From contig QPGO01000005.1 of assembly GCA_008632985.1 (NCBI GenBank), forward strand, positions 248,001 to 312,000: a stretch of 64,000 bases of DNA, given 5' to 3'. A program made the translations under genes and the position numbers. A model generated the notes under the pieces. It worked only from the letters and a program-made list of their open reading frames with translations, ran no database searches and was not told the origin of the DNA. This stretch comes from Psammoneis japonica (taxonomy: Eukaryota). Position 1 is the stretch's first letter, and every line of letters starts with the position of its first letter. Positions 3,594 to 44,633 of the stretch are shown here, one piece after another.

Positions 3594-3614
3594 TTTGTCA
3601 CGACTGGGGTGGGT

Positions 3615-4787: not shown

Positions 4788-4859
4788 TGCCCACTCAGTT
4801 CGAGAAGAAGCAGGAGAGGCAATGCTTCTCACACAAACCAATGCACAAACCAACATTCT

Positions 4860-6770: not shown

Positions 6771-6812
6771 ATGATGGGAATCGAACCCACACGCGGAGCA
6801 CCTGGAGCTGGA
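6771..6812 (-). pseudogene. tRNA-like remnant (T-arm/B-box only)
   Basis: Minus strand reads gtgtgggttcgattcccatcat, nearly identical to the T arm of the tRNA at 8577-8648. No D arm or A box seen. Confidence 0.5.
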
Positions 6813-6914
6813 ACAGGCCGGAAGAAGCTTGATGACAGGGAAATGAAAGGCATGTCATTGGCATTGAACAAGTTTCTCAATTGCTTCAGATGCACAAGAG
6901 GGCTCCAAGAAGGC

Positions 6915-8475: not shown

Positions 8476-8576
8476 TGGGAAGCAGAAGCTTGGTTTTTCT
8501 TTTACGTTCCGCCGGTGCGATGTTTTCTGCTGCCGCCTTGTTTTTTGCTCTTGCTTGCGAGCTCCAAAAGAAGATT

Positions 8577-8648
8577 TTTCGATGATGGGACTCGAACCCA
8601 CAACCTATGGATTAGAAGTCCATCGCGCTACCTTTGCGCCACACCGTG
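8577..8648 (-). tRNA. tRNA-Arg(TCT)-like gene with an imperfect acceptor stem (possible pseudo-tRNA)
   Basis: Minus strand CACGGTG TG GCGC AAAGGTA GCGC G ATGGA CT TCT AA TCCAT AGGTT GTGGG TTCGAGT CCCAT CATCGAA A. D, anticodon and T arms pair, but positions 1:72 and 2:71 do not. A TTTT run follows about 8 nt downstream. Confidence 0.8.
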
Positions 8649-19720: not shown

Positions 19721-20375
19721 CAACGTTTTGCTGTGGTCAAACATGATTTTGTGTTCACAGGTTTTCACAGTGCTGGGAACACCACCCTGCACAGCAGGTG
19801 CTTGAAGAGAGGAAGGGCCCCACACCTTTCCTTTTGGCAATTCTCCAACCTGTTGTCCAGCCCCAAGAAGGGTGAAGATTGATGGTCAATGCTCCCCGGC
19901 AGGACTGTTTCACGCACCTTTAGCAATGGTGCATCCGATGTTTTTACGGTGCAGTTAGTACAGCACGGTGTTGCCGGGGACAAACAGAAATGAGAGATGA
20001 CATAAATCTTTGCCGATTTTCGTTAAAAGACATTTTGGATCGAGAATTCTGGGACTGATTTCCAATGTGCACAGGTAGCACACGTGGAAAAGACAAAAGC
20101 AAAATATCACCGAAAACCTTATTTTTTAATGCTCTAGCTGTTTATTACTTATTGAGGGACATTTAGATTGCTGACTGTCAAATACGAACAACTGCGCAAG
20201 TCACAGAAATGAAGGCAAACACGCGAAGTCGTCATTCTACCGAATTTCAGCCGAAGACAACATTATGGATACTAGTGTCGTACCTAAAGGGGAGGAAAGC
20301 TCACATTGATTGCCGGTAGCACGACTACGTCTCAATTCGCGATTTACCACATCGTGCATCCAACAATTTTTCACG

Positions 20376-27755: not shown

Positions 27756-27837
27756 TTTTTTTCATCTCTAGTGGAGACAACCAACCCCCCATACAACACT
27801 CCCCATACAACACTCTACTCCTATTTGTTATTAGATT

Positions 27838-30800
27838 TTAGGATGTAGATTTTACAGCAACCTTTGCCATTGATCCAAGCTCTTCCAACGACATGGGTTT
27901 CCACTGAGAGCCCTGAAAGGCAAACACGACATTCGAGTCCAAGTATATGGGGACAGAGCCGAATAGAAACACTTGCTTCCCGTCCTTGAGGGCGTTGGCA
28001 CCCATGCGGGGAAGAAAGTCAACATCTTGTTCTCGCGCATAGTCTTGTACCACATCACGAAAGGTCGAGCTCTCTTCCTTCTTGTATGCCGACGTGGATG
28101 CAAAGCCCTTTTGATCTTGATGAGCGTCTCGTTCCGCTTGATTCAATTCTGATTGGGCCTTCACTTGCTTCTCCTTTTGGCGGCGGGCCAACACGACACG
28201 GTAGTTGACGTCACTGTTGGGACGCAAATCGTTAAGTGCATCTTGAGTAACATCAGAAGAATCCGGCTGTTGGACCGCTTGAATCATTAACAAACCACCG
28301 TAGAAAATTCGACATATTCTGCTGTCCTTGCACAGTAGCAGCCAAGGTTTCCCTTCGTATCCAGATTCCTTCATGCCTTTGCGGGTGTCAAAGAAGAGTC
28401 GCCATTTCCACTCGAGATAGTACTCTGCAACACTCTTCATGTCGAGTTCCTTTTTGTTGGACGATGTCAAGATCCATGTATAAAGAGTCTTGGCCCAGTT
28501 CTGTAACAGCTCGCCCTCTACCATACTCAAAAACTCGACCTCGGAAAGCAAACCTAGTCCATTCAGCCGAAACAAGACACGAACCGGTGACAGAACATTG
28601 CCATTCGCGGCGCCATCGTTGCTCCGCATTTTGAGATTGGACAAGCAACGACCCAGTCTAGGTGTTATGTAGTGAGACGTTAGATCGTGCACCGTGGTGG
28701 ATTTGAAAACAAATTTCCAAGGTTTCAGCGTCTCCAAGGACGCCTGCAGAAATTCATCGTCGTTGGAGACCTTGCGTTGTAGAAACGACATGGCGCTTTT
28801 GATCTTTCTCTTGATATCAGAAACCAATGTTGGAAGAATAGAACGATTGTAGTCCAAGTGTTGTACCCAGGGAAGGACCCAGAGGTCGATGCGGTCTTGG
28901 AGTTGAGCACGTGCTGAAGCCTCCCCGTTCTCAACGAATTGTGGCTTCCATTGACTTACGCATCGTGCGAGCTTGGGATAGATGGTATCATGGACAAGTT
29001 CATCTTGTATTACATGGACGAGGTTCGGTAAACCGCCATGGTCATCATCGGGAGCATCTGAAGTCATGAGTACGTGGTTTTCGTCTTGTTTGTGATCGGC
29101 TGTTGGCGATATGAGTGCAGCTGCTCGAATCATTGCTTCGTACAAGGCAAGGGGTCGTTCGACGTTGCTCATGGGATCCCATTTCACTGACTGGAGCGCC
29201 TTCTTAACTCTAGGAACAACGTGATTCACGAAAAGGGACTGCCTCATTGCAATGATATCCTTTTCATTGACTGAAGAGTTTGATTCCGCATCGTTTCCAT
29301 TCAACGTCAAAATGAAATTGATGAGTGCTTCAGATGTACTGATCGAGTCTTCCAGAGGCTCCCATCCACTCAACCGATTCTCTACAAGGGAACTGAATAA
29401 CGACGGTGCGAGGACTGTGTTGAATCGCAGAGACACCTTTTCTTCAGAGGTAAAGCTATCGCCCAACTCTTTGACCAACGATTCAACCTTGGCTGCCGCT
29501 GCAGGATCGTCGCTCTTTTGCAAAACATCAATTTGATCCATTATTCTCAAGACACGTTGCATTTTGTCAATCCGTTCTTGTCCATCCTTTTGTCTCCGTT
29601 TCATATCTGCAATGTCTGATTCGATGCTCTGGACTTTACGCTTGGTTGACTGAACAAAGTGAGACGTCGAGTGAAGTTTGTTTTCGTAGGTGTTGAGAAT
29701 CAAGGTTACATTGTGCAGAAGCTCTTCGGCGAGAGGAACCTCCTTTTTGGATCCATCGGCTGACGTCGATAAGGAAGGACCCCTCATATCTATAATGACT
29801 GGCTTGTCTTGTTGGTTCTCTAAAACTTGCGTAGCAGACACAATGTTTCGCTTCGGTCGTTTGGCTTGGCGTTTCGAGTATTGTCCGCCCTTTCTCCACG
29901 ATTCCTGCTCCAAGAGTTCCTGCGTACTGGGTAACGCCGATGCCGAGAGCGACATGGCCATACCATCATCCGCCTGCTGCTTCTTTTGTTTCTTTGGCAA
30001 TTCGATACCACGAACCTCAGCTTCAATTTGTTGGTTCACCTTGAGCTTTGTTGCTTCCTTGAAATTCCCGTAACCAAGGCCGAGGTTGTTTGGTCGAACG
30101 ACAACTTCGACAGGACGCGAAATGCCTTTTCGGGACTTTGCCTCTGTTTGCAGGTCTGTTTGTCCTTCTTGGTCTTGTCCCTTTTCGTCTTTCTTTTTCA
30201 CAACTCGTCGATTCGATCCCAGCCCCCCACTGCCTTTGTATCCCATTTTGGTAAGCAACTTCATCCCGATACCTTTGGTGTGCTTCTCCCATTTCCCAAG
30301 GTTTGGGTCAATTTTCGGTTTCTCAGACACAAAACCGCCACCACTTCCTAATCCGAATGATGCGGCCATGTTGGAAGACATGCCCAATCCCATCTGAGAC
30401 ATGCCAAACGGTTGCTGGTCAAGCTCTTGACTCGGTTTCTGAGACGACGGCTCAAATCCCAACCCACCACCTGGTGTTACCATATCAATATCGGTTCTTC
30501 TGGTAGGAGGCTCTGATGGAGCTGACATACTAAGAGGTCTTTTGCGACCGCCACCCTTTTTCTTCCCTCGTCCCAACAATTCCAGGAATCTCTTATTTGC
30601 CGCGTCCTTTTCCTCTTTAAGCAGTCGCTTTTGTTCCTCCTCTTCTTTTTTCCGTATAGCTTCTTCCTCTAATTCTTTTGGGCTTTTACTTTCCCGTCTA
30701 TCAGATGTGCCATCGTTTAGATCCGCTTCATCGACTTGAGTCTTTTCTTTTTCCTTTACAAAGCTATCTTCCGTTTTGCTCTTGACAAAGTTCATGGTGG

Positions 30801-31059
30801 ACGGACCGTCGTTCTTCTGATAGTGAATATGACGCCTCGAGGTAAAACGATCATCTTCATCATTGTCTGAGTCTAAAAAGACCCCATACGTCGCAACATC
30901 ATGTCCATTCTCGGTCTGCTCTTCGCGGTCTTCGTCGCCAAATGTGGTGTAGGCGAACTTTCGTTTCTTGGAAGCCACAAACTCCACAACATCATCATCG
31001 TCACTGTCTACAGATATAGCGTCACTATCATCGTGGTAACCACCATGGGGGTCTTCCAT
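27838..31059 (-). CDS. TFIP11: Tuftelin-interacting protein 11 / Ntr1-like spliceosome disassembly factor (G-patch + GCFC)
   Basis: G-patch 'WEKHTKGIGMKLLTKMGYKGSGGLG...GISRPVEVVVRPNNLGLG', 'EELLHNV' and the C-terminal 'DGKQVFLFG'. Single 1073-aa ORF. Confidence 0.9.
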   Translation of the reverse strand: MEDPHGGYHDDSDAISVDSDDDDVVEFVASKKRKFAYTTFGDEDREEQTENGHDVATYGVFLDSDNDEDDRFTSRRHIHYQKNDGPSTMNFVKSKTEDSFVKEKEKTQVDEADLNDGTSDRRESKSPKELEEEAIRKKEEEEQKRLLKEEKDAANKRFLELLGRGKKKGGGRKRPLSMSAPSEPPTRRTDIDMVTPGGGLGFEPSSQKPSQELDQQPFGMSQMGLGMSSNMAASFGLGSGGGFVSEKPKIDPNLGKWEKHTKGIGMKLLTKMGYKGSGGLGSNRRVVKKKDEKGQDQEGQTDLQTEAKSRKGISRPVEVVVRPNNLGLGYGNFKEATKLKVNQQIEAEVRGIELPKKQKKQQADDGMAMSLSASALPSTQELLEQESWRKGGQYSKRQAKRPKRNIVSATQVLENQQDKPVIIDMRGPSLSTSADGSKKEVPLAEELLHNVTLILNTYENKLHSTSHFVQSTKRKVQSIESDIADMKRRQKDGQERIDKMQRVLRIMDQIDVLQKSDDPAAAAKVESLVKELGDSFTSEEKVSLRFNTVLAPSLFSSLVENRLSGWEPLEDSISTSEALINFILTLNGNDAESNSSVNEKDIIAMRQSLFVNHVVPRVKKALQSVKWDPMSNVERPLALYEAMIRAAALISPTADHKQDENHVLMTSDAPDDDHGGLPNLVHVIQDELVHDTIYPKLARCVSQWKPQFVENGEASARAQLQDRIDLWVLPWVQHLDYNRSILPTLVSDIKRKIKSAMSFLQRKVSNDDEFLQASLETLKPWKFVFKSTTVHDLTSHYITPRLGRCLSNLKMRSNDGAANGNVLSPVRVLFRLNGLGLLSEVEFLSMVEGELLQNWAKTLYTWILTSSNKKELDMKSVAEYYLEWKWRLFFDTRKGMKESGYEGKPWLLLCKDSRICRIFYGGLLMIQAVQQPDSSDVTQDALNDLRPNSDVNYRVVLARRQKEKQVKAQSELNQAERDAHQDQKGFASTSAYKKEESSTFRDVVQDYAREQDVDFLPRMGANALKDGKQVFLFGSVPIYLDSNVVFAFQGSQWKPMSLEELGSMAKVAVKSTS

Positions 31060-31159
31060 TATGTGTAAGCGTAAGAATGTTTCGGATTATAGAGCGGCAA
31101 GGTGCGAGAAGGGGATTTCTACATCCGTACCTGTCGCATCATTGTCACCGAGTGAATAA

Positions 31160-31290
31160 ACTGTGATGCGTGATGCGAATGGCGAATGGGCACAGAAAGA
31201 AAGCAAGGAGCGGATGGACGGACAGCCTCTCACGTCTGAAAAGCGCGGGAAACCGTACAACGTACAGACCCCAAAATTTGACGCACGTTG
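31160..31290 (+). promoter_or_regulatory. Promoter-proximal segment duplicated at 43505-43640
   Basis: Identical 30-bp core gggaaaccgtacaacgtacagaccccaaaa at 31247-31276 and 43596-43625. Lies about 190 bp upstream of TFIP11. Confidence 0.65.
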
Positions 31291-31626
31291 TCTTCGCTCT
31301 TCCATGAACATGAGGATGATGAGACATGGTCCATTGGAGCAAAGCGAGGACAGGAAGTGGAAGTTTATCCTGGAGTTGTTGTCAGTCAAAAATCAAGCAG
31401 AGAAAAGTGGCCTCAGATTCTGGAAAATGTTTGTCATTTGAAAACCCAAAAACAGGCAGGAAACGGCGAAAACGGAACAGTGCAAAAGGCGCGCAACACA
31501 GTCATCCCTGTGACGCAACCAAGACGGATGACCGGACCTACAGTATCTACTTCTATCGGAGCGATTGATGCACCATGATGAGCGACGGAAGTTCGTTGTC
31601 CCCGTCGCCCCGTTGCTGCTAAAACA

Positions 31627-34400
31627 ATGTCATCTACGACGGGTGAGAAGATCTTGCATTGCTTCGTGGAGAATGAGCAGCTGCTGATGCTGGTGAAGGT
31701 TACAGAGCAGCATCAAAACAAGCACGTACCGCTGCCACTGCTCTCCGTCTATCTGCCCTATACGAGCACTGTCAGGGAGCTGAAAATGATCATTCAGGAG
31801 CAAGCTGGCACAGAAGCAAAGGACCAGCATTTGCACATTGCTGGAAATGCGATCTTTCATGGTGCCATTGCGGAAGCGCACCAAGATGTGTTCCAAGTGG
31901 GGTTGCAGGATCTGTCCCCATAGCGGGAATCACTCCAGATCGAAAAAGTGTTTTCATGTGCGTTGGATCAGAAAAAGATGGGAATCATCTTCTCAATGTT
32001 GCACACAAATGATGTCGCCGAAAATGAGAGTGATGGTGTTGAATCACAAAGTCAATGACAATGTAAACAAACATCATCAGTTCAATGAGTTGTTGTGATG
32101 TTCTGCTGTCATTCTCATTTTCGGCGGGAAAGCATGTGCAAGCATTCGATTCTATAGAACAATGACAAAAGGACCCTCATGAAAACACTTTTCTGGAAGT
32201 TGATTGTGGGTCGAGGGTGATTCCCGCCATGGGGAGAGATCCGGGGTTGCGCAGGGTGCCACTCGATCCATGTCTCGAAGCCCTTTACGACATGACTGGA
32301 CATGGAGACGTTCACGAGCGCGATGAAATCATGGCCAAAATGACCACTCCACGAGATGCGCAAAATTGTCCTGGAGGTCACCAATTGACGGCTCTCTTTG
32401 ACGATGATGTGGAAAGCACAGAGGAAGTGCAAGAGGAACGCAAGCGGCATGTCTGTGTCAAATGCCACACACCCGGAAACCCCAATGTGAGAATCACATC
32501 GGGTGACGGTTTGGTGAGGTTTCTGCCTCTTGTTTGTTGGGAGTGCAACTTTTCTCTCTGCAAGTCTTGTCACCATGATGACATCGGAAGAGGCAAGATC
32601 AACGATCCGTGTGAGAGCCTCCAGGATTTGGCTGCCGGTGTCAGTCGTAATGTGGCAGGTTGTGCTTGCTGGTTTGGAGGCCATGGTCATGTGAATGGCC
32701 ACCCGGTTGTTGGGTGTGGGTCAGAACATGTGAACAAGCGACTTTGTCAACCTGCCAACAGATGTCGAAGGGACGATGAACATGGAATCGTCATTGACAG
32801 AAATCAGCAGGTTCTTCAACAAGGCGTCCGTGTCCAAGTCCATTTTGATGAAGATGCGAGGAGTGTTCTGACTGCCGCAGGAAAGGAGGACTCGCTAATG
32901 AAGCTTGAAATTGACACCATTCTGGAAGATGGAGCAACCACGATGGATGTGGTTAAACTTCGGGGGATTCTACGCGGGGAAGACCTTTGGTCCATTGTCA
33001 CAAATGAATTGAAAGACAGGTTCCCGATGCACACAGATCCGCGTGCCCATGAAACAATGAAAGTTGCATCCTTTGAGGCCGGAAAAGTCGTTCTCGAGAT
33101 CAGCTTCAAAGTTTCTGATGCCGCAGACTGCCAGAGGTGTCCAGTTTTACACCTGTGATGCACCAAAGAGAGCACATTCAGCAGTTGGCTGTCGACATGT
33201 TTGGGCCTAACTCACAAAGTACAGTGCAACACAGTCGCCACATGATGAGCTTGTCAACTTTCTACTCGCACGGCGCTGATTGTCTGAAACTGGCGAAAAC
33301 GCCAAATTTCATGCGGCTGATCAGAGGACAGACCAGAGGCAAATTTGAGACAGTTTTTCGGGACAGCAACCAGGATGAGCCATGCAGCCAGAAGAAGAGG
33401 GATGGGAGGGGAAAACAGCATGTGAATGACAGGGGTTAGATGGGCAGTAAAATGAACAGGGGAGAGACACATTGTTGAAGCACACAGACAATCAAAATCT
33501 GGCTCTGCCTGCCCGGCAGATGACTTTTCAGATTGCTTGCTTCATGCGCGCACTCACAGGAGCATCTGGCCCATCTGGCGACCTTGAGCACGGCAACTTG
33601 GTGTGACTTGCATGTTGTCATCATCCAGGCCGGAACAAGACCCTTTGCTTCAAGGTGGGACTTGGCTGTTTTGTCAGCTTTTGAAGAGTGTGTGAAGCCA
33701 ATTGCAAGAGGCAGGATTTGCTCACACCATGCAAAAACAATGGTGCGAGATTTGAGCTGTCTGACTTGCAAGGTGATTGATCTCAAGTCATTGCATGTGT
33801 GCTTTCTTGACTGCATGTGTGGATCAAGCAGATGGAGAGTGACAGCATCGGGCAGAGCTCTCAAACCTCTCTGTGCAGCTGTTGTTGAGGCTGCAGGTGC
33901 TGGAAAAAGCACCATGATGAGTGCATTGGTGGTGTGCTGCTGTTCAACGAGAGATGTTTCAACCAAATGGCGGTGTGTTCATGGGTGGGCCAACTGGGTC
34001 ATCAGCTGCATTTGAGGCTTTGGGGAGACATGGCATTGGGGCTGTTTTCCACACCTGTTTGCAACTCAAGCTCGGCCAAAATGCTGCCATTGTCTGGAAC
34101 CACCTCTGCTTTGCTGACCTCCTGAAACAGAAGAACAATTGCAGGGGGGGGGGGTTGAGCAAAGTTTGGCTTTGCTGGCTTCCATGGGCTGTGCTTCCCA
34201 CAATTGTTGGCAAACTGCATGTGATGGGAGTTGTTGTGGTGAGGACCCATGCAGGAATAAGATCCAAGCACTTGGGCAGATGTTTTGGGTGTTGTGTGAA
34301 TCACCAAACCATTTTGTGCAGAGCGCACATGCACACAATGCAGGGACACACAGAGCTCAAGTCATTGCACAGAGTCAACCACACTTGGCACTGAACAGAT
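31627..34400 (+). pseudogene. Decaying multidomain gene: ubiquitin-like domain, ZZ/C1-like zinc finger, P-loop NTPase
   Basis: 'TVRELKMIIQEQAGTEAKDQHLHIAG' (Ubl-like), 'CPGGHQL...CVKC...CWECNFSLCKSCH', and 'AVVEAAGAGKSTMM' near 33880-33920. Stops and frameshifts increase 3'-ward. Confidence 0.5.
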
Positions 34401-36379
34401 CCTGTGCAGACCCTTCACACAATGCACATCAAGAATTGTGTGGCAGCCAGACATGGCACAGATCAAATGTGTGGAACTCCTGCAGCCAATCACAGGCTCA
34501 GCATGCTGGGAGTCATGTTTTCATCACAACTGCACTTTTGCACAATCAGCTGTCAGCTGTGGACAGCTTCAGATGCACAAAGGTGGCATGACACATGCTG
34601 CTGCAGGGATGCCTGTGGCAGCAGAGATGAAGCTTTCTTTCTGCAATGCACCAATCTCCAGATGTTGGTTGGAGTTGACTTGTCAGAGTTGCTGCCTGTT
34701 TCTTGTGGTGTGTTTGGCACTCCTCTGGGTCCTTCTGCCAACACCAAGCATTTCTTGAGAGCAGAGTTGTTGAGCATGCAGGTGTTTCTTCAATGTGGGC
34801 CAATGATGTCATGACCATTCTGTCAAAGAAGAAGCATCAGACTGAGGGGCAAAAGAAGAACATCAAAGGCTGCTTGATGAAAAGAGGGTTTGGCTTTTTG
34901 ATGACAGCAAATGCTGAGACAAGCTGTTGGATGAGTTGCATCTTGTCAGAGGTGAGCACAGCAACAACAACAGGGAGCTTGTTTTGGGTGTGATGCATTG
35001 TTTCTTTCTGTCAGCAGGAAACCCATCAATGAGTGCAATCACTTGTGTTTGTCAAGGCTTTGTTTGGAGGATGATCCTTTTGTGATTGCAAAGTCATCAA
35101 CAAGAGGCAAAATGAGGTTGGAGTTTCCAACCACTTTGACACTGGTTGTCTCATTGAGGCTTGTGGCTCATGCTTGCACTGGGGCAAAAGTTTCTCCTTT
35201 GCATGGTTGTGACTTCAAGAACCCTTCATGGGGGCTGTTTCATGGTTTGATGGGAGCCAGTGAGGAGATTGTTTTGCACCATGAGACAACCCAAATGAAG
35301 GACACCAGTCATTGCATGTTGTTGTCAACTTCAACAACAGCTCTTGTGGACCACAGCATGAGATTTGTCTTGTCCAAAGGCACGTGTTTGGGTGTGCTTG
35401 GCCAGGTGTCATAACAGCGTGCTCATCTCCACATGGAATGCTTGTCTTTGACCAAGTGGTGTGCTCCTGCTGTTCTTTGCATTGCACATCCTTGCAGCAG
35501 GCGCTGATGCTGTGAGAAAATCCCTTGTCCATTGAGGCTGTCATTTGCTTGCTGGACAGAGGGTGCATTTCAAGGACAAACGGCTGGGCAGGTTGAACCT
35601 GGGAAGCCACCTGATGATGTCCTTTGTGTCATTTTGGATGCTGGCTCTTGTTTTTTTTTAGGTGTGCCACAAGCTTGGGACATTCTGTGTTGTGCTTGGA
35701 AGGAGAATGTTGATCAGAGAGCTGCTGGGGTTGAGGATGACAAGCACGTGGGTTCTGCCATGTTCTTCCTTGACTTTGGGCTCAGACTGGTGGTGCGGAC
35801 TGTTTTGTCAGCTGCAGGGGATGGTTGGCTTGCCAGACAAACTGCACAGCACCATTGGTGTGACAAATGGATTGAACACCTCAAAGCTCATCCTTGTCCA
35901 GCAGGGCCAGCAGTTGAAGATGTTGAGTTTCTGCGCCAGTGGGCCATGACAACAAGAATCTTGCCATTGTGCATTGGCGCATGATGGACCGAGAAGCTGA
36001 CGAAGGCATTTGCACCTGACATGCCTTGGCTGACATTTTTTGTGGTGCTTTGAATGGCAAGAAGCTTGTGTGCCCACAATGTGCCAAGTGCTTGCAGCAC
36101 TGCCTTTGCAACAAACTGGCAATTTGGCCCTTTTTGATGAGCTCCACATCATGTGGAGCTCTCATTTTCATGTTGCTTCCACGTGGGAGCTTGCCAGACC
36201 ACGCAGGTCACCAGCGGCTGTTTTGAAATGGTTGTCTGGCCCCCTTTTGTAAAGACTGTTCAGAGAACACATGTTTTTGATGTTTTTCAATGTCTGGAAT
36301 CAGGGTGTTCTCATGGCAGCTGTGCAGATGTGGGCACTGAAAATGTGTGCATGTCCACATGAGCCTGTCCACCACCAAA

Positions 36380-36830
36380 TGCAATGTGCAGCTGCCAATG
36401 AGAGTCAATGCATCACGGCGACGTGTCACAGCCTTTAAATGTCACAAAGGGCGTGACAAAAGTGACCTTTTGTCTGCATGCATGCTGCGTTGTGAATTCA
36501 CAGCGGGGAGTGGTTCATCGTATGACCATCAGGCAGGAGGCCAGGGGTTCGAAACCCTGAGTGGGAGTTGTCTGCAGCAACGTTGATCACTGTCGAACGC
36601 GCAAAACTCTGTGCAGTTCTGCATGTTCCTTCGCACGCACCCACACTGTTCCGCCAAAACCGTGCAGTGTCAGCACACGTTAGTAAAGAGCCGCATGGAC
36701 GCGTGACACATGGGGAGGAGTGCAATGTGCAGCTGCCAATGAGAGTCAATGTGTCACGGCGACGTGTTGCAGCCTTCAAATGTCACAAAGGGCGTGACAA
36801 AAATGACCTTTTGTCTGCATGCATGCTGCA
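36380..36830 (+). mobile_element. TRIM-like miniature LTR retroelement (110-bp LTRs, 231-bp internal region)
   Basis: Direct repeats 36380-36489 and 36721-36830 (TG...CA in the 3' copy). PPT ggggaggag directly before the 3' LTR. 4-bp TSD caaa (36376-79 / 36831-34). Absent from the paralogous site near 42058. Confidence 0.85.
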
Positions 36831-39792
36831 CAAAAAAATGTTTGTGCCCCAAAGAAACATTTTGTCTCAACTGTGATTGGAGCTTGGCAGATCAGACAAA
36901 TGCCATCAGTTTTCCTCAAATTTGAACAAATTTCAATGCTCGTTTGAGGGCACCTGTGCCCCAGCTTTGGAAACATGTGCCTTGATGGCCAACAAATGAT
37001 GCAGCCTTTGGCGCGGCATGCACACCTGAAATGACAGAGGGCCCACAGGGCACAGAGTGTGCAAAGTTGACACTCAACCATGGCAAAGTTGACGCACCTG
37101 CTTTTCTTTTTTTGTGTGAACCCACGCTGCAATGGCAATGCAGAGCCAACACACAAAGCATCTTTGTGGTCTGGGAACTCCATTGCATGGCATGCATGGT
37201 TGCAAAATGGACAAAAATGCCTTGAAAATTGAGTCAAGCATTGCGCCCACATTCCAAACTGCTCCATGCTCTGTTTCAAACTGCTGGCCATCATGAACAG
37301 ACACAGTGCCCAGCATGATGAACAAGCTCATGCCAACAAACCGCAAGAGCATGGCTGCATCAATCATGGTCAAGAGGTGTCCAACATTCCCAAGGCCTTC
37401 CTCATGTTGCAAGCCATGGGCAAGTGCAAAAACAAGGAGGTGCTGAAAGCAATGCAGCTGCAGTGCATGGCAGACTGCTGCAGTGACACCCTGACAATGG
37501 TTTTGCTTGAGCAGCCAGTGGCTGGTGCACTCATTTTGTAAAGTCTCTTCCTCTGATGCAGTGAAATCTGAGAGCAGCAATGACAAGCAATGCCCGCTGC
37601 ACAATGATTGTGTGACACCTCATTGTCATTGCCCACACATGCTTGAAGAGGACAAGGATGAACTCTGGGAACAACCCAATCAGCTGGCCAAGCAGCGCAC
37701 CACCAAGTGAGTTTGTTTCATGCAACAGAGTGGTGATTGCCAAAGAAGACAAAGCACAAGTGCAGCTGATCCTGCCATGTGCTGATCTGGAACATTTTCT
37801 GCCATCCCTTCTTTGAGAGGAGAGTGCCAAGACAAGCAAAACCAAAAGACAACATTTGCAACAGACATGTGGCATTTTGCAGACCACAATGTCATTGTGA
37901 AGTGTGTTGCGTGCATGACAACATGATGCTTGCTTTGCAGTTCAATTGTGTCAACAAGCTTTTGACTGATGAAAGATTTGCAGTTTCGCCAAGTGGGCAC
38001 ACAAACAAAAACTGGGCAACCATGCTGCTGCATGACAACACAAACAAGGGATCACATGAAGAAAACAAATGCCATGCACAAACAGACTGTGTGCTCCACA
38101 ATGACAGAGAGACAATCCAATGACATGCAACCATGATCCATTTTCACATGAGATTTCTCCCTGTTCTTGGGCTTGGAGTTTGGAAAGCAATTCAACCTTC
38201 TTTTCCAAGTTCTGACATTTGTTTTTCACATCCACACCAGAGAGCCAACTAAGAGCAATGTTGTGAACCAGGAGATTGCTCTTGATCTGACTCCAGCTTC
38301 ACTTGCCATGTTTTTTCAAGGCATGATGCAATGCCTGAGTCTCCTCATCAGCCCATTGAAAGCAGCACTCCCCCCCCCACACACACCTCCTGGACCAGTT
38401 GGTTGCATCCCACCCACCACCTTGCCCTCTCCTCACAAGCAGAAGTTTAGACCTTGGAATGTTCTGGAGCAGTGCTGAGCTTCACACCCTCCTCCAGTTC
38501 TTCCCACTCCTCCTCCTCTGATGTGCAGCTGAGCCCCAGCACTCATGCAGTTGGCTTTGGGGTCATGGCTGTGTGTTGCTCATCAATGGGGCCAGGCCAG
38601 CTGGATGACCAGGAAGGAAATTGCACAGACAGAGTGGGAGTGACAGACAACTCCTCTGGCAGATGCTGGTTTGTGGGACAACAGAAGGGTGTGAGCAGGG
38701 AGGGGCTGGGGCTGGGCAGCAAGGTGCTGCAAAAACTCACAACAATTGCAATGGGCTTCTGCAGCATCTGGGAAGGGGGAGTGCCACACGGTGTAGGAAC
38801 TGGGGTGTCAGGATCAAAGTTGCAGCAGACATTGGAGACACAAGGAGATGGGGCAAAGAGGAGATGGCACAGCAGGTGTGGTGGAGGGTGCTCTTGGTCT
38901 GAGACAGACAAACGGTCAAGATCAGTGTGGAACAAGGAAGCTTTTTGTGCAAGGCAAGTGCAGACAAAGTCAGCACTGCCCTGACAGGCTGGCCAAGGAA
39001 GCAGAGGCCAGCTGCAACTTTTGGTGAAAGCAGAGGGTTTGCAGTGGGGTTGAGGAAGGCAAGTGCCTTGTGCAAGGCATCTGCGCTGTCAGGCAGGGAC
39101 AGCCTTGGAGTGGGCTAGAACCAGAGATGGAGGTTGGGATGCACATCTTCAAGCAATTGAGTTTTGTGCCATGCTGTGGGCCAATCTGGGTGAGCTGCAG
39201 AAAGAACCACAGCAGCTTGGCATGCAGCAGCCAGACACTGGCATCATTTGATGATGGGAAAACAGCAGAAGTTGTTTGAGGAAAGTGCTCCGGCTTCCAG
39301 CTGCAGCAAGACACTTCATTTGCCAGAGTTGTCACAATGCCAACATGTGTTGGGAGAGGCACAGCAGAGGTCAAGTGAAGAGAGGCACCAGAAAGTGCGG
39401 GGTTCTGCACAACAAGCAGGGTTGGCGTTTGGCATCAAGAACCTCCCTGCGGCATTCAATGTTGGTGTGGGTGGTGCGGATGAGGCAGTCAAGGCCACCT
39501 TTGATGCCGGCCCTGAATTGGTCATCTGGGAGGAGGCAGTGGGTGAGGGCAGGAGCCTTCACAGTGAGAGAGCCTGCGACACATTGGACGTCAGTGTTGC
39601 CACAGCCAATGGGCCATGGCTTCTTCTTGAGGTTTGTTTGGTCTTTGTGCAGTGTGACATGGATGGAGCAACTGCTGGCTGGCAGAGGGATGGGCAGATT
39701 TCATTGGAGGGGCCAAACTGGCTTGGACCAGGAGAATGAACTGCTTCTTGAGTGTTTTGAAGCATGTGGGCCTCCTCATTTGAGTCTTGCCA

Positions 39793-40026
39793 CCCTGCAC
39801 AAGAAGTCTGGAATGTTGAGCTGCGTAGAAACCGTCGTAGAGTCAGCACCAGGGTGGTCAAAAAAGTCTGGAACATCCGATTTTGACAAAAAACACGCAG
39901 AATCTGGTGCAGAGTCAGTGCCAGGAACATCCAGAAAAACATGAAAAATCCCGCTGTTCCAGACTTTGTTGGCTTTTCTGGTGCAAATTCTACGCAGGAA
40001 TGACATTCCAGACTTTTTGTGTCGGG
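39793..40026. mobile_element. MITE (234 bp) with ~38-bp imperfect TIRs
   Basis: Left ccctgcacaagaagtctggaatgt...ctgcgtagaa, right ttctacgcag...acattccagactttttgtgtcggg. Flanked by ca/ca. Absent from the paralog near 43330. Confidence 0.75.
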
Positions 40027-40195
40027 CAGCTTGGGGGGCACAAAGACTTTAAAGAAGGTGCAGGCCTTGAGTGGGTTGATGGAGTTGGCACCAAGGATTG
40101 GCAGCAGTGCCCAGCTTCTTGCAGCAGCACTTGCGGCCAAGAGCTGCCAGGAGCTGCTTGTGTCCATCTGTTGCCTCAGGTGGGGGGGGGGGGGG

Positions 40196-40231
40196 NNNNN
40201 NNNNNNNNNNNNNNNNNNNNNNNNNNNNNNN
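40196..40231. other. Assembly gap after a poly-G run
   Basis: 36 N characters. Confidence 0.99.
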
Positions 40232-43200
40232 TTTGAAGTGCAGGCAATTCAGGGTGGGCACAGTGATTGTGTGATGGGACTGTGGTGTGAATGGGGCATC
40301 ATGGCATGGCTGTGATGTGGGCATCAACAAGCAAAGAGCAGACTGACAGACAGATGTTCACTGCAGTTTCCCATGATGCATGCAGATGAATGAAGGTGGC
40401 ATCACACATGCCGCTGCAGGGATGCCTGCTGCAATGGAGATGAAGCTTTCTGTTGCATGTTAATCCTGATGTTGACCAGAGTTGACTGTCAACTGTCACC
40501 TGTTTCTCATGATGTGTTTGGTGCTCCTCTTGGCCCTTCTGCCAACACAAAGCATTTCTTGAGAGCAGAGTTGTTGGGCATGCTGGTGTTTCTTCAATGC
40601 GGGCCGATGATGTCATGACCGTTCTGTCAAAGAAGAAGAGTCAGACTGAGGGGCAAGAAGAACATCAAAGGTTTCTTGATGCTGCCAGGGTTGGCTCTCA
40701 GATGACAGCCAATGCCAGGACAAGCTGTTGGATGAGTGATGCATCTTGGCAGAGGCAAGCTCACTGATGAAGATGGGGAGCTTGTTGTTGAGCACAAATG
40801 CACCATTTTGCTCTGTCAGCAGGGAACCTGTTGATGAGTGCAGTCACTTGCATTTGTCAAGGATTTTGTTTGGAGGATGGTCCTGTTGTGATTGCAAAGT
40901 CATCAATGAGGGGCAAAAATGAGGTTGGAGTTTCTGGCCACTTTGACGCCAGTTGTCCCATTGTGGCTCATGCTTGCTCTGGGGCAAAGGTTTCCTTTTG
41001 CAGGGCTCTGCAACTCCAACCCTGCATGGGCTTTTTTTGTGGACAACCCAATTGAACAAGGAGATCAGCCACCACATGTTGTTGTTAACTTTGACAGCTG
41101 CTGTGGACTGGCATGGGACAATTCATTGTTGTCTGAAGGTGGCACATGTTTTGATGTGCTTGGCTGGGTGTCATGACAGAGCATGCTCATCTAAATGGAG
41201 TGCACTTGTCTTTCTCCAAGCGTGCTCCTGTTCCTTGCATTGCACATCTTTGCAGCTGCCTTTGCTGTGAGCAAACCTCTTGTCCACTGAGGCAGCCACT
41301 TGCTTGGACAGCAGATGCATTTTGAGAACAAATGGCTGGGCAGTCTGAGCCTGGGAAGCCACCTCCTGATGACATTTTTTGGACCCTGGTTCTTGTGCTT
41401 TCAAGGTGTGCAACAAGCCTGGGATTTTCTGTGATGTGTTTGGAAAGGAAAAGTCAACTAGAGAGCTGGGGGAGGATGGCAGGTGCATGGGTTCTGCGAT
41501 GTTCTTCTGTGACTTTGTGCTTGGGCTGGTGGGCACTGCTTTGTCAGCACCATGAGTTGCCAGCGCGCAAGGCAGGGATGGCTGACTTGCCAGACAAAAT
41601 GCACAGCACCATCATTTGATGTGACAAGTGGGTTGAACACCTCAAAACTCATGCTTTTCCACCAAGGCTGACAGATGAAAATGCTGACTTTCTGTTTCAG
41701 TGGGCCAAGACAACAAGAATCTTGCTGTTGTGCACCAGTGCATGGGTTGAGAAGCCAACAAAGGCATTTGTGCCAGACATGCCTCATTGGCTGGCATTTT
41801 TGTGGTGTTTTCTGTGTGGCTGGAAGCTTGTGTGTCAACAGCGTGCAAAGTGCTTGTGGCGCTGCCTTTGCAATGAACTCTTCTCATCAGACCACACATG
41901 CCAGTGGCTGTTGCAAAGTGGTTGTCTGCCCCCCTTTCACAAAGTCTGTTGAGAGAACAGATGCTTTTGGTGCTCTTCAACTGGGGTGCTCTCATCACTG
42001 TTGCACGGATGACATTGGCATTGAATGTGCCCATGTCCACACAAGCCTGTTCACCACCAAAAAACATGTGCTTTGAAGAAACATGTTGTCTCAACTGTGA
42101 TCAGAATTTCAAACTGCTGACTGTGACAAACAGACATTGTGCTCTGTGCTCCATTTCAAACTGCTGACTGTGACAAACTTACACAGTGCTCAGCATGACA
42201 ACAACAAACCACAAACTTTGTTGGCAGTCTTGCCAACAAACTGCAAGAGTGTGGCTCCGCATGAGTGGCTGTGATTGGGAGGAGCTCAGCGTTTCTGAGG
42301 CTCTCATGTTGCAAGCCATGGTTGATGAATGCAAAAATGAGAAGAAATGCTGAAAGAGATGCTGCTGCAGTGTGCAACACATTGCTGCCGTGACACCTTG
42401 ACAATGGCTTGAAGAGCCAAAATGTGGTGCATTTCACAAAGAAGTCTCTTCCTCTGATGCAGAGAGGAATCTGAGAGAGCAATGATGACAAACAGCACTT
42501 GTCACAGGACTGGAACCAGAGATGGAGGCAAGAATGCACATCTTTGAGCAGCTGAGTTTTGTGCCATGCTGAGGGGCAACATCTGGGTGAGTTGCTCAAG
42601 GAACCACATGGCAGCTTGGTGGGTGGCAACCAGATGCCAGTGGCACAGCCTGATGACTGGGGAGCCACAGAAGTTGAGAGTTGGATGGAGCAAGATGCAA
42701 GCACAGCTTGGTGCTCAGCTGCTTGAGGATGATGCTCAGAGCTCAGGCAGAAAATGGTGGGCCTGGCAGGCAGCATTGGATGAAGCCCTCCAGCTGCAGA
42801 AAGGCGCGCCATTTGTTGGGGTCATTGCAAGACACCAGCATGTTTTGGGGTGGGCAGCCACAGCAGAGGTTAAGTGTGAAGAAGAGAGAGGGGGAGAATG
42901 TGGTGCAAAAGATGGGGTTGGCATCAAAAACCTCCCTGCAAATCTCACAAGAGCATTCATTAAAAATGTTGATGAGGTCAAGGGTGAAAAAGGAGTGTGT
43001 GTTGGAATAATTTCTTCATCCAAGTGGCAGCAGTCAAGGCAGTTGAGGCCACCTTTGGTGGCTGCCATCCCTGAGAATTGCCTGTCTCTGGGAGGAGGGA
43101 GCAGAGGCAAGGGCAGGAGCCTTGGCGGTCATGGCAAAAAGTGCCTGTGACACACTGGGTGGCCATGGGGTGCAACTTGTTGAGGTTTGTTTGGTCTTTG

Positions 43201-43489
43201 TGTGGCACCACCAGATGGACAAAGCAGCTGGCTGGCAAGAGCAGGCTGATCTCATCAGGGGCCACCAAGCTGGCTTGAGCCAGGAGAATGAGCAGATTGA
43301 GTGTTGTGAAGCAGGGCCTTGTTTTGGATTTTGAGGGTGGTGCAGAGACTTTCAAGAGGGCACAGGCCTGGAGTGCATCAGCAGAGTCGACGTGTGACAG
43401 TGTGCCTGGCTTGCACACTTGCTGAGAGCTGCCAGGAGAAGAGCTGCTCGTCTGGCATTTGAAGGGTGGGCAATTTGGGGCGGACACAG

Positions 43490-43640
43490 GGATTGTATGA
43501 TGGGACTGTGATGCGAATGGGGATCATGGCATGGATTGGGGGCATCGACAAGCAAAGAGCGGATAGACAGGCAGACGTTCACTTCTGAGAAGCGAGGGAA
43601 ACCGTACAACGTACAGACCCCAAAAATTTGGCGCGCGATG
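43490..43640 (+). promoter_or_regulatory. Second unmutated copy of the duplicated promoter segment, upstream of the kinase-like gene
   Basis: Matches 31160-31290. A third, mutated and truncated copy is at 40255-40362. Confidence 0.65.
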
Positions 43641-43763
43641 TATGTTCTCGTGTTCCTTTGCGTGCTCGTGTCACCTTGAACTTGATGCCCGATCCATCCT
43701 TCACCTTTCTCAACAACAACGTCTATCTCGTTCGCATCAAGCCTTGATGAAATTTTAACAGAC

Positions 43764-44633
43764 ATGAAGCACTTCAGTCTTCTCATTCTTGTTTCGACTC
43801 TTGTCAAGTCCATCAATGCTTTTGCGGGGGTGAGCACTCGCCCTTTTGCCGCTCATCATTCCCAGGCACCTCGGCCAAAATTGATCCTCATTAGCGGGAG
43901 TCCTGGTACTGGTAAATCAACTTTTGGCATGAGCGTGGCACTCGATCAGGGCATACTAAAATGCATATCCACCGATACAGTTCGAGCCGTCATGAGATCT
44001 TTTGTCAGAGAGGATATTAGTCCAGCCCTTCATCGTTCTTCCTACGAATCGTCGGGAGAAGATGATAACCCCGTCAAGAGCTGGAAAAAGACTTGTACAG
44101 TGCTAGAGGCGAGTTTGAGTAGTCTGGTTCTTGACGCTATTGAACGAGGCCAGAGCCTGGTGCTAGAGGGAGTACATATAATACCATCGTCCGACTTGAT
44201 TGAACTATGGGAAGCAAGCGGTGGAGTTGCGATTGGGTGTCTCTTGACCATTACTGACGAAGAGGGACACAAGGGACAGCTGCGCCGCCGTGGCCTAATG
44301 ACTGGAAAGGATGCGCCGGAGGAGAAAAAGATCAAGTCCTTTGAGCGGATTCGAGCTATTCAGGACGAGATGGTGGCTCTCGCTCGAGCTTCCAAGAATT
44401 GGGTCCTTATCGAACAGAATCTTGCGCCCGATCCCCTCGACATCATCCAATCAAAAATTCTGGATTCCACTCTAGAAGCGACCAACTCTGGTGTGCCGAC
44501 CCTCGAAGAATTATCTCACTTGGAGCAGCATTTGGTGCAAGTGGAGGAGGAAATGGATTTGGCGCCGACCGAGGAAGCATCGGAGGAAGATGTGCCTGGC
44601 GATGGTGTTCATCGCGAAGGAGTTTCATTCTGA
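43764..44633 (+). CDS. 2-phosphoglycerate-kinase-like P-loop NTPase, probably plastid-targeted
   Basis: 'LILISGSPGTGKST...ISTDTVRAVMR...LHRSSY...SLVLEGVHIIP...F.RIRAIQ'. N-terminal signal peptide ending INA-FAG (ASAFAP-like). Confidence 0.8.
   Translation: MKHFSLLILVSTLVKSINAFAGVSTRPFAAHHSQAPRPKLILISGSPGTGKSTFGMSVALDQGILKCISTDTVRAVMRSFVREDISPALHRSSYESSGEDDNPVKSWKKTCTVLEASLSSLVLDAIERGQSLVLEGVHIIPSSDLIELWEASGGVAIGCLLTITDEEGHKGQLRRRGLMTGKDAPEEKKIKSFERIRAIQDEMVALARASKNWVLIEQNLAPDPLDIIQSKILDSTLEATNSGVPTLEELSHLEQHLVQVEEEMDLAPTEEASEEDVPGDGVHREGVSF

Follow-up and report, generated by a model that had tools for sequence, protein, structure and literature searches.

Composition of the locus

Why should a block of 10,054 nt have lost nearly all of its CpG and TpA dinucleotides and be so rich in TpG and CpA? 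The block lies in a 64,000-nt stretch of Psammoneis japonica (the window), which is diatom nuclear DNA, and the sequence-only reading had proposed that TA and CG were converted here to TG/CA and that paralogous copies record these changes directly. The features that define the locus are:

1001..19900, unstranded: block 1, a second block of like kind, with its own repeat families
8577..8648, minus: tRNA-Arg(TCT) gene inside block 1 (ARAGORN; Rfam RF00005, 59.7 bits)
27838..31086, minus: left flanking gene for a G-patch/GCFC (TFIP11-like) protein, of normal composition
31147..31291, plus: third copy of the promoter-proximal sequence, not converted, matching 43492-43641 and used as outgroup
31582..31920, plus: ORF with a weak ubiquitin-like match (PF00240, E 0.001, under the curated cut-off)
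31960..33360, unstranded: TpA-only zone at the left margin of block 2, TpA depleted and CpG largely kept
33361..43450, unstranded: block 2, the block in question, CpG and TpA depleted, TpG/CpA in excess
43686..44633, plus: AAA_33 kinase-like gene of the right flank, where composition is normal from ~43450 on

Block 2 contains 101 CG and 27 TA (observed/expected 0.16 and 0.04) against 1255 TG (1.77) and 1077 CA (1.97); the corresponding values are 0.27 for CG and 0.05 for TA in block 1, and ~1.0 for CpG and 0.55 for TpA in the flanks. Per kb, the flanks hold 54-58 CG, 37-38 TA and 139-140 TG+CA, together 230-236 pyrimidine-purine steps, block 2 holds 10, 2.7 and 232 (245 in all) and block 1 holds 15, 3.3 and 222 (240 in all). 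The blocks have thus gained 82-92 TG+CA per kb and lost 74-83 CG+TA per kb with the pyrimidine-purine total constant, and G+C is the same as in the flanks (0.47-0.50). The observed/expected ratios of AA and TT, followed in a 1-kb profile, are not reduced.

The TpA-depleted area is broader than the CpG-depleted one, and the right-hand border is common to both. The ORF at 31582..31920 is the final stretch of normal composition on the left, with TA density normal up to 31761. In the TpA-only zone that follows there are 12 TA (0.13) and 61 CG (0.74), and TG+CA reaches 189 per kb. Relative to the flanks this is a gain of 49 TG+CA per kb against a loss of 10 to 14 CG and 29 TA, so that CpG decay alone is insufficient as the source. 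Sub-zones 4801-7000 and 8401-9200 of block 1 have likewise lost TpA and kept CpG.

Depletion is regional rather than genome-wide. At codon positions 3-1 in eight ORFs, CG stands at 0.94 and TA at 0.58. None of 2109 1-kb windows of comparison DNA combines TA < 0.15 with TG/CA > 1.4, compared to 115 of 253 in our window, and none falls below TA 0.19; this comparison DNA consists of 80 metagenome loci (597,288 nt) fetched via TFIP11 relatives, the best-matching of which are diatom-like. Within block 1 the tRNA island stands out, since bin 8601-8800 has 10 TA and 11 CG, and the adjoining bins have 0-1 TA. Block 2, its TpA-only margin and block 1 are without recognisable coding content and consist partly of tandem duplicates. 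A Pfam search of block 2 returned no domain except one weak Myb match, and neither a homologue nor a Pfam match was found for the 330-aa ORF at 32166-33155 in the TpA-only zone. Domain searches found no viral or transposon protein domain, including reverse transcriptase, in the blocks, and so a role in defence against invading DNA is without direct support here.

Paralogues inside block 2

The paralogous segments and the interruptions within them are:

34570..37583, plus: paralogue A1, split by a 455-nt insertion
36376..36830, plus: recent 455-nt insertion whose tRNA-like core GGTTCGAAACC lies between terminal direct repeats of 109 nt
39112..40362, plus: paralogue B1, the inner copy, ending in a copy of the promoter-proximal sequence
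40196..40231, unstranded: run of 36 N inside paralogue B1
40383..42485, plus: paralogue A2, from self-BLAST
42507..43583, plus: paralogue B2, whose last ~130 nt (43458-43583), on the block edge, keep 5 CG and 2 TA

Self-BLAST pairs 34570-36117 with 40383-41879 (74.6% over 1600), 37260-37583 with 42140-42485, 39112-39274 with 42507-42676, 39483-39773 with 43037-43319 and 40232-40362 with 43458-43583. When transitions are ignored by recoding as purine/pyrimidine, identity of the first pair rises from 74.6% to 86.5%, which we count in favour of the TA/CG to TG/CA reading. Over the five segments, with 2308 aligned nt, there are 436 mismatches (297 transitions and 139 transversions), and the copies differ also by indels. 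Not a single CG (0 of 29) or TA (0 of 9) is conserved between paralogues in this alignment, compared to 58-77% for the other 14 dinucleotides, among which AA (65%) and TT (74%) are unexceptional. TA thus changes more often than other dinucleotides in the aligned segments, and together with the mass balance and the purine/pyrimidine identity this bears out the proposed conversion.

The individual pairs pointed out beforehand are all present in the sequence. For TA they are 43496 gTAtga (edge copy) and 40270 gTGtga, 35412 caTAac and 41174 caTGac, 36250 gTAaag and 41940 aCAaag, 39116 cTAgaacc and 42511 cTGgaacc, and, in the terminal repeats of the insertion, 36436 ttTAaa and 36777 ttCAaa; for CG, between 43505-43580 and 40280-40360, they are gCGaat/gTGaat, atCGac/atCAac, gCGg/gCAg and gaCGtt/gaTGtt. 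With the eight aligned segments taken together, TG stands opposite 14 of the 50 CG sites, CA opposite 16, another dinucleotide opposite 7 and a gap opposite 13; of the 14 TA sites, 4 lie opposite CA, 3 opposite TG, 4 opposite another dinucleotide and 3 opposite a gap. Direct TA pairs therefore do exist, but they are scarce (7 of 11 aligned sites), and by themselves insufficient for the claim.

At other sites one copy has CA and the other TG, as expected if a site was resolved on opposite strands. Such doubles make up 57 of 153 adjacent double mismatches in the five segments, about six times the average over 2000 shuffles (9.2, sd 2.8, at most 21), which upholds this part of the earlier proposal. 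They can also form stepwise from CA or TG via a short-lived TA or CG, so not every double need go back to a TA or CG present at the time of duplication. Conversion struck both strands at individual sites and formed no strand-coordinated runs (25 runs observed, 26.4 expected). CA in copy 1 with TG in copy 2 is more frequent than the opposite (38 to 19, p = 0.016), an imbalance that counts against the reading. In the three-copy families of block 1, 51 of 214 sites that are pyrimidine-purine in all copies mix CA and TG, 4 of them as (CA, CG, TG), and only 2 sites in these alignments bear TA.

The 455-nt insertion has kept its CpG (0.78) and is poor in TpA (0.16). An independent read run, X1, gives a summed word depth of ~54,000 on it compared to ~100 alongside, and it occurs in some copies of the locus only, as one X1 contig represents the empty site by running from 36375 straight into 36831. 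Its terminal repeats had been called LTRs; they are 109-nt direct repeats on either side of a tRNA-like core and need not belong to an LTR retroelement. On block 2, X1 contigs of 654, 803 and 738 nt show 8, 9 and 14 differences (~98-99% match), and X1 contains 78% of the 31-letter words of the block. Among the 40 differences listed, of 604 between X1 and the window, the 18 differing letters in the block include 4 TG/CA doubles, 4 differences between CG and TG/CA and 1 TA/CA difference; these may be allelic, between-strain or assembly differences.

Direction of change and surviving sites

The edge copy at 43458-43583 had been taken as the unmutated state that polarises the changes. Its 7 CG or TA sites read TG/CA (6) or CT (1) in the inner copy, and the reverse case does not occur. 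The outgroup copy at 31147-31291 matches it by self-BLAST over 31201-31291 and 43550-43641 (84.8%), a match that lengthens in the purine/pyrimidine code. Three-way alignment shows the inner copy to be derived, CG having become TG/CA, at 43514, 43560 and probably 43576. At TA 43564 the short outgroup is ambiguous, and at 43496, where it is poorly aligned, it has G like the inner copy. Polarisation by the edge copy thus holds for CpG, for which the direction is now shown, and not for TpA; since the outgroup polarises CpG only, we infer the direction from TpA to TpG/CpA on indirect evidence.

The 70 TAs that survive in the blocks are strongly biased in context. TTAA accounts for 22 of them (31%), compared to 5.5% of flank TAs and to 6.8% expected if new TAs came from TG/CA (p = 7e-10), whereas ATAN (4 of 70) and NTAT (3 of 70) are rare, whereas each makes up 26% of flank TAs. 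A model that gives each strand a single rate, determined by the nucleotide 5' of T, and with ancestral TA contexts assumed to equal those of the mostly coding flanks, fits all 16 contexts (X2 7.1, df 12, p 0.85) and improves on a uniform rate by a likelihood-ratio statistic of 85 (p 2e-18). The 5' base preference of TpA loss is A > G ≈ C > T. For CpG, sites with A or T neighbours decay more than sites with G or C neighbours.

Comparison with known systems and alternative explanations

The closest precedent is TpA hypermutation in Bigelowiella natans, where Mettrop et al., in a 2026 preprint, describe regional hypermutation, from TpA to TpG/CpA, in DNA integrated from giant viruses (NCLDV) and virophages, two viral inserts showing de novo mutations at TpA only, and propose an ADAT2-like adenine deaminase (bioRxiv 10.64898/2026.01.13.699255). 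The likeness extends to TpA transitions giving TpG or CpA by strand, to their limitation to certain regions of an otherwise ordinary nuclear genome and to a long-term signature of clustered 1-kb windows that are low in TpA and high in CpA+TpG. There are also differences: B. natans is a chlorarachniophyte and P. japonica a diatom (stramenopile); TA depletion is near saturation here (0.04) compared to 0.45 in the NCLDV insert; the targets there are viral, and here are without a recognisable viral or transposon domain; and the process there is known from de novo mutations, here from sequence comparison. CpG loss is coupled here, and we see a flank preference, with TTAA refractory and ATA/TAT most sensitive; the preprint text mentions neither CpG, nor diatoms, nor flanking sequence.

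Loss of CpG from methylated repeats by deamination of 5-methylcytosine is well known. Diatom transposable elements are CG-methylated via DNMT5a (PMC9998398). Such decay resembles our case in giving TpG/CpA on either strand of repeat-rich DNA; it explains roughly half of the TG/CA gain here and no more, and TpA loss lies outside it. TpA loss could be a by-product of CpG methylation if T:G mismatches from 5-methylcytosine entered error-prone, Pol eta-type patch repair that mutates A at WA, the motif preferred by Pol eta. The common blocks and common right-hand border agree with this, and zones with TpA lost and CpG kept could mean efficient mismatch repair with many patches, but AA, which a WA signature should erode, is conserved at 65% (TT at 74%) with ratios not lowered, and the specificity is for TA alone with its own 5' base order, so we consider this quite unlikely.

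Fungal RIP changes CpA to TpA, so that TpA goes up and G+C goes down. It shares with the blocks transitions only, dinucleotide specificity, wreckage of duplicated DNA and paralogues that record the events; here, by contrast, TpA is erased and G+C is constant. A related, homology-dependent process triggered by duplication, perhaps with a RID-like DNMT4, of which the block would be the remnant, draws on the tandem paralogues of block 2 and repeat families of block 1, on the share of discordant sites, from which we estimate that roughly two thirds to nine tenths of convertible sites were apparently converted after duplication, and on the grouping of diatom DNMT4 enzymes, to which no function is yet assigned, with fungal RID (PMC9998398). 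Nevertheless it is unlikely, as 33361-34560 and 37600-39100, single-copy within the window, are as strongly depleted as the rest of block 2, the TpA-only zone has no copy in the window, and at the block edge homology dependence is not seen, the duplicated edge copy being largely spared and its inner twin converted.

The blocks could instead have been poor in TA and CG on arrival, as foreign or viral DNA or as retro-copied, A-to-I-edited RNA. In keeping with this, the young 455-nt insertion is already TpA-poor with CpG at 0.78, so some TpA poverty can come from a source copy. ADAR/APOBEC hyper-editing of retroelements leaves strand-coordinated clusters on copied RNA or cDNA, and ADAR prefers a 5' U; it resembles our case in deamination with a neighbouring-base preference, whereas here both strands were changed in place and show no runs, which counts against one-strand RNA editing, and domain searches of the blocks gave neither a reverse transcriptase nor a viral domain. 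Integrated viruses are the targets in B. natans (bioRxiv 10.64898/2026.01.13.699255), but block copies disagree at converted sites (57 doubles, no shared CG or TA), the read contigs depart from the window by changes of like kinds, the edge copy continues into promoter sequence of a normal host gene and the 597 kb of comparison DNA hold no such TA-poor window, all of which makes inherited composition very improbable. Miscalling of modified bases (5-methylcytosine as T, modified A as G), with a consensus random between TG and CA, would mimic strand-symmetric, site-independent resolution, but can hardly be entertained: X1 shares most 31-letter words of the block and its contigs match at ~98-99%, when a true TA/CG sequence would give ~80 differences per kb, the paralogues differ by indels and 139 transversions too, and the borders coincide with genes and the tRNA island.

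Proposed mechanism

Our preferred explanation, which we hold to be probable, is near-complete in-place transition of both CpG and TpA, the two pyrimidine-purine dinucleotides that are self-complementary, to TpG/CpA on both strands of diatom DNA. TpA and CpG would be mutated in place, with the outcome recorded by the block paralogues; the process would halt ~100-200 nt from neighbouring genes, spare the tRNA gene island in block 1 and may be what still shows in the differences between the assembly and the independent reads. The CpG arm is probably deamination of 5-methylcytosine in methylated DNA. The TpA arm would be a separate, TpA-specific process, faster or wider than the CpG arm, most likely a deamination at 5'-TA-3' in DNA that turns adenine into inosine, for which ATA (= TAT) would be the best context and TTAA the worst. 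The target is presumably set by chromatin state and not by sequence homology. The pattern suggests targeted mutation, by a process that has previously been reported from one other alga only.

Composition of the two blocks

Those parts of the window that have a normal composition contain long, intron-poor ORFs for eukaryotic proteins, among them the following.

27838–31086, minus strand: G-patch/GCFC TFIP11-like protein
59347–62322, minus strand: HAT-repeat/RRM protein
ORF in a part of normal composition: FAD-linked oxidase

The TFIP11-like protein has 197 relatives, the unnamed ones reaching 53% identity, and its best named matches (36–44% identity) are all from diatoms (Seminavis, Fragilaria, Cylindrotheca, Mayamaea, Nitzschia, Chaetoceros and Thalassiosira), so that the window is diatom nuclear DNA. 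An 856-aa ORF on the minus strand (53724–56294), which has no Pfam match, contains a tandem duplication of 181 nt (54424–54604 and 54610–54790, 91.7% identical).

A different composition is found in two blocks, both of which are poor in CpG and TpA and rich in TpG and CpA.

Table. Dinucleotide counts, with the observed/expected ratio (O/E) in brackets.
Region; CG; TA; TG; CA
Block 1, 1001–20000; 286 (0.27); 62 (0.05); 2170 (1.78); 2041 (1.77)
Flank, 20001–31900; 641 (0.94); 440 (0.55); 811 (1.11); 846 (1.13)
Block 2, 33361–43450; 101 (0.16); 27 (0.04); 1255 (1.77); 1077 (1.97)
Flank, 43651–64000; 1183 (1.02); 775 (0.56); 1408 (1.11); 1444 (1.14)

Per kb, the flanks hold 54–58 CG, 37–38 TA and 139–140 TG+CA, and the blocks 10–15 CG, 2.7–3.3 TA and 222–232 TG+CA, while the pyrimidine–purine steps amount to 230–236 in the flanks and 240–245 in the blocks. 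The loss of CG and TA is thus matched by the gain of TG and CA, G+C is unchanged (0.50 in the block, 0.48 in the flanks), and this composition and balance are as expected from transitions at these two dinucleotides, CG and TA. Since TAA and TAG are nearly gone from the blocks, TGA is the sole terminator and false ORFs appear in all six frames, with stop-free stretches of up to 445 aa (for example 5183–6517 on the minus strand and 1214–2272 on the plus strand) that are rich in Cys, His, Gln, Trp and Met. These could be called as proteins and mislead gene prediction.

A marker that requires TA O/E below 0.15 and TG/CA above 1.4 in 1-kb windows is passed by 115 of the 253 such windows here and by none of 2109 control windows from 80 metagenome loci, fetched with the TFIP11 relatives and diatom-like where they matched best. 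These metagenome contigs are short and gene-centred; they are therefore a control for the marker and say nothing on the process in other diatoms.

Paralogous copies as a record of the mutations

Self-BLAST revealed that block 2 is built of two tandem A–B units, the first of which has been enlarged by insertions.

34570–37583: A1, pairs with A2
39112–40362: B1, pairs with B2
40196–40231: run of 36 N
40383–42485: A2
42507–43583: B2

The last ~130 nt of B2 extend beyond the block into the upstream region of the gene at 43686. We call this end of B2 the edge copy (43458–43583) and its twin inside the block the inner copy (40232–40362); a third short copy, promoter-proximal and unconverted, is found at 31147–31291 and served as the outgroup. 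The sequence-only reading had proposed that these paralogues record changes between TA and TG/CA and between CG and TG/CA, and each of the site pairs it had named was found where it had placed them. In five BLAST-supported segments 2308 nt were aligned, and the mismatches number 297 transitions and 139 transversions, 436 in all. CA faces TG in 57 of the 153 adjacent double mismatches of these segments, against 9.2 ± 2.8 (maximum 21) in 2000 shuffles in which partner letters were permuted among columns sharing the same base. Between the paralogues not one of 29 CG and not one of nine TA is conserved, compared with 58–77% for the other 14 dinucleotides; changes at TA are therefore commoner than elsewhere, in a comparison that could have gone against the proposal. 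Over all eight segments, TG or CA is the partner at 7 of 11 aligned TA sites and at 30 of 37 aligned CG sites. Identity of the main pair rises from 74.6% for nucleotides to 86.5% in a purine/pyrimidine code, which is blind to transitions. With some caveats, discussed below for the direction of change, the paralogues and the composition both support conversion of TA and CG sites to TG/CA.

Block 1 (19 kb) has its own repeat families, such as 3611–4788 with 6912–8475, and 10624–11973 with 16524–17750 and 12111–13170, and shows no similarity to block 2. In two three-copy families of this block CA and TG are mixed at 51 of 214 all-pyrimidine–purine sites and four sites read CA, CG and TG; TA occurs at just two sites, and CpG can be polarised by parsimony.

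Part of block 2 derives from a tandem duplication of sequence that lies upstream of the gene at 43686. A sequence of ~150 nt, at 31147–31291 and 43492–43641, lies directly upstream of a plus-strand ubiquitin-like ORF and of the AAA_33 gene, and it may be a shared promoter/5′ leader module or the trace of an older duplication. A purine/pyrimidine-coded self-search for hidden unmutated source copies lengthened the known matches and yielded nothing more; its weak block-to-flank matches are probably noise, because E-values are uncalibrated for a two-letter alphabet. No viral or transposon Pfam domain was recognised in 96 ORFs of at least 110 aa (45 in block 2, 51 in block 1), DNA that may be too decayed for recognition, nor when block 2 was read through in all six frames with X in place of stops. 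The sole match of this read-through is a weak, TGA-interrupted Myb/SANT-like one (PF00249, ~38206–38355, minus strand, E 0.006), possibly the remains of a host gene that has decayed. These ORFs and frames thus yielded no protein relic from which TpA changes could be polarised as Tyr to Cys or His. The largest ORF of the zone next to block 2 in which TpA alone is depleted (32166–33155) had no homologue among 1578 candidates.

Direction of change and sequence preference

The sequence-only reading had also held that the unmutated promoter copy gives the direction of change. This holds for CpG, where the outgroup reads CG with the edge copy and the inner copy carries the derived state at 43514 (CG, CG, TG) and 43560 (CG, CG, CA), and probably, from the same alignment, at 43576 too. 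The CA, CG, TG sites of block 1 agree with CpG as the ancestral state, and on these alignments the direction from CpG to TpG/CpA can be regarded as established. For TpA the outgroup is uninformative: site 43564 reads TA, TG and CT, and at 43496, where the outgroup is poorly aligned, it has G like the inner copy. Taking both dinucleotides together, CG or TA is retained in the edge copy and lost in the inner copy at seven sites, and the converse is found at none.

We infer the direction from TpA to TpG/CpA from mass balance, conservation, the contexts of the surviving TAs and equilibrium. The mass balance is clearest in the TpA-only zone (31960–33360), where, per kb, TG+CA rise by 49 while CG falls by only 10–14 and TA by 29, so that the gain needs TA as a source. 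Among the 70 TAs that survive in the blocks, 22 (31%) are in TTAA, for which 6.8% would be expected if TAs arose anew from TG/CA (p = 7e-10) and which makes up 5.5% in the flanks; ATAN and NTAT account for only 4 and 3 of the 70, although each makes up 26% of the TAs in the flanks. All 16 contexts are well described (X2 7.1, df 12, p 0.85) by a model in which each strand has a single conversion rate that depends on the base 5′ of T (A 3.06, G 1.75, C 1.44, T 0.49), and this model outperforms one in which the rate is uniform (likelihood-ratio statistic 85.1, p 2e-18). Seen from the opposite strand, the preference concerns the base 3′ of A (T > C ≈ G > A). As for equilibrium, TA amounts to ~1% of TG+CA by our own arithmetic, and TA would thus disappear about a hundredfold faster than ordinary transitions remake it.

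Regional targeting

In eight ORFs, codon positions 3-1, the least constrained phase, have O/E of 0.94 for CG and 0.58 for TA, and the flanks are therefore without the bias. The borders are sharp, at about 200, 19900, 31960 and 43450–43500. TA and CG recover jointly at ~43450–43500, about 200 nt upstream of the ORF at 43686, and also at ~19900. On the left side of block 2 TA depletion sets in at ~31960, just beyond the weak ubiquitin-like ORF, and CG depletion only at ~33360. Zones with TpA lost and CpG mostly kept are thus found at 31960–33360 and, within block 1, at 4801–7000 and 8401–9200, while a zone with CpG lost and TpA kept exists nowhere in the 64-kb window. It follows that the TpA arm has a greater reach or a higher speed than the CpG arm, and that one can occur apart from the other.

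Block 1 is interrupted by an island of normal TA and CG content around a tRNA gene.

8577–8648, minus strand: tRNA-Arg(TCT) gene

The island spans ~8500–8900 (200–400 nt), with 10 TA and 11 CG in the bin 8601–8800, and its presence points to protection of this DNA from the process by active Pol III chromatin or by selection. Homology dependence, a trait of repeat-induced point mutation (RIP), would fit the presence of duplicates, yet stretches of the block that have no copy in the window are depleted as strongly as the duplicated ones, and the duplicated edge copy is largely spared in contrast to its converted inner twin. Taken together, the borders, the tRNA island, the spared edge copy and the depleted single-copy stretches favour a trigger by position or chromatin state rather than by homology.

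Signs of recent activity

One of the insertions that enlarge the first unit of block 2 has a distinct structure.

36376–36830: 455-nt element; direct repeats of 109 nt form its ends, and its core (GGTTCGAAACC) resembles a tRNA

The 109-nt repeats differ from each other by transitions alone (two CA/TG doubles, one TA/CA and one G/A), and the element has a TpA O/E of 0.16 and a CpG O/E of 0.78. In a sequencing run of the same sample (X1) a contig joins 36375 to 36831, which is an empty site, so that the element is an insertion absent from some copies of the locus. Summed word depth in X1 is ~54,000 over 36132–36795 and ~100 on the block and flanks (~500-fold); this is depth and not copy number, and hints that the element is highly repeated and the rest of the block is not. 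No other copies were found among the metagenome contigs with an exact 24-nt core word. The element resembles a young mobile element of the SINE or TRIM type that is highly repeated.

Run X1 contains 78% of the 31-letter words of the block, and its contigs of 654, 803 and 738 nt differ from the block at only 8, 9 and 14 places, which makes a base-calling artefact very unlikely. Among 40 listed of the 604 places at which X1 and the window differ, 18 letters lie inside the block (four TG/CA doubles, four changes between CG and TG/CA, one between TA and CA, one CA/TT double and three single letters) and 20 in the left flank (9 transitions, 11 transversions). At two of the differing doubles the paralogue A2 sides with the window. 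Doubles at a divergence of ~1.4% suggest a two-step path in which CA becomes TG, or TG becomes CA, by way of a transient TA or CG, and hence a process that is still running; the X1 differences may be allelic or between strains. The blocks may be silent. Contigs of another run, X2, represent the flanking genes only and do not cover 32148–43435 save for the bin of the high-copy element; this does not count as evidence of silence, and no read run is on record as RNA.

Comparison with known mutational processes

The closest parallel is in the chlorarachniophyte Bigelowiella natans, where two viral inserts carried 231 of 302 de novo mutations, at ~1000 times the background rate in mutation-accumulation lines; nearly all of the 231 were A to G or T to C, and every such change lay on TpA (bioRxiv 10.64898/2026.01.13.699255). 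TpA-poor, CpA- and TpG-rich clusters occur elsewhere in that genome, an ADAT2-like deaminase has been proposed, and the available text of the preprint does not mention CpG, flanking context or diatoms (bioRxiv 10.64898/2026.01.13.699255). The diatom blocks share with this system the change of TpA to TpG/CpA (0 of 9 TA conserved, 7 of 11 facing TG/CA), a direction we infer here, and the confinement to regions of an otherwise ordinary nuclear genome, as seen from the sharp borders and codon positions 3-1. In B. natans the targets are integrated viral or transposon-derived DNA; here there is one small SINE-like insertion, and no viral or transposon Pfam domain was recognised in DNA that may be too decayed to show one. 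The CpG arm agrees with decay by deamination of 5-methylcytosine, in which ancestral CpG becomes TpG/CpA (0 of 29 conserved, 30 of 37 facing TG/CA). Diatom transposable elements are CG-methylated via DNMT5a, and many diatoms carry a RID-like DNMT4 of unknown function (PMC9998398). By analogy with those elements, the region itself would be CpG-methylated.

Fungal RIP changes C to T mainly at CpA, which raises TpA and lowers G+C. Here TpA is erased (O/E 0.04) and G+C is not lowered (0.50 in the block, 0.48 in the flanks), so the spectrum is not that of fungal RIP. Hyper-editing of retro-copies, or of a single RNA or cDNA strand, by ADAR or APOBEC enzymes, as well as processive deamination, is disfavoured by the lack of strand-coordinated runs at discordant sites (25 runs, 26.4 expected) and by TG and CA counts that are near balance along the blocks. 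At the CA-versus-TG disagreements copy 1 has CA at 38 and TG at 19 (p = 0.016), an unexplained strand asymmetry between the tandem units. Pol eta mutagenesis at WA motifs would also mutate the A of AA; AA and TT are conserved between the paralogues (65% and 74%) like other dinucleotides, and neither is depleted in the blocks. Mutation accumulation in Phaeodactylum revealed a GC to AT bias with mutagenic CG, CC and TG contexts, and the text available mentions no TpA effect (PMC6604790). In the literature outside subscription journals we found no account of diatom DNA from which TpA and CpG had been erased together.

Implications

The analysis thus bears out the observation, and the finding can best be regarded as a variant of a little-known type of regional hypermutation, one that erases TpA, is coupled here to CpG decay, is saturated and has a measurable flank preference. 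A further idea, to which we give only a small chance, is that TpA is a second marked dinucleotide of diatom chromatin, through either a maintained symmetric TpA modification or a chromatin-targeted deaminase that hits the C of CpG and the A of TpA. In either version mutagenic decay may remove TpA at a higher rate and from a larger area than those at which 5-methylcytosine removes CpG. The refractory TTAA and sensitive ATA/TAT contexts, the exclusion of the tRNA island, and zones with TpA lost and CpG kept but never the converse are consistent with such a second mark. If this were true, the blocks would bear the imprint of a genome-defence or heterochromatin system without a characterised enzyme, which might be common to Rhizaria.

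The classic cases of targeted, context-specific regional mutation are fungal RIP and the decay of methylated CpG. A TpA-erasing process has been reported once so far, in a chlorarachniophyte, with its mechanism unknown (bioRxiv 10.64898/2026.01.13.699255). The diatom window adds a saturated signature in a second major stramenopile–alveolate–rhizarian (SAR) lineage, a CpG loss that is coupled yet spatially separable, a flank preference that can be measured, sharp borders near genes and around a tRNA island, and signs of recent activity. The 1-kb window test offers a simple genome-wide marker for affected DNA, and the removal of TpA becomes directly testable in algae that include transformable laboratory species.
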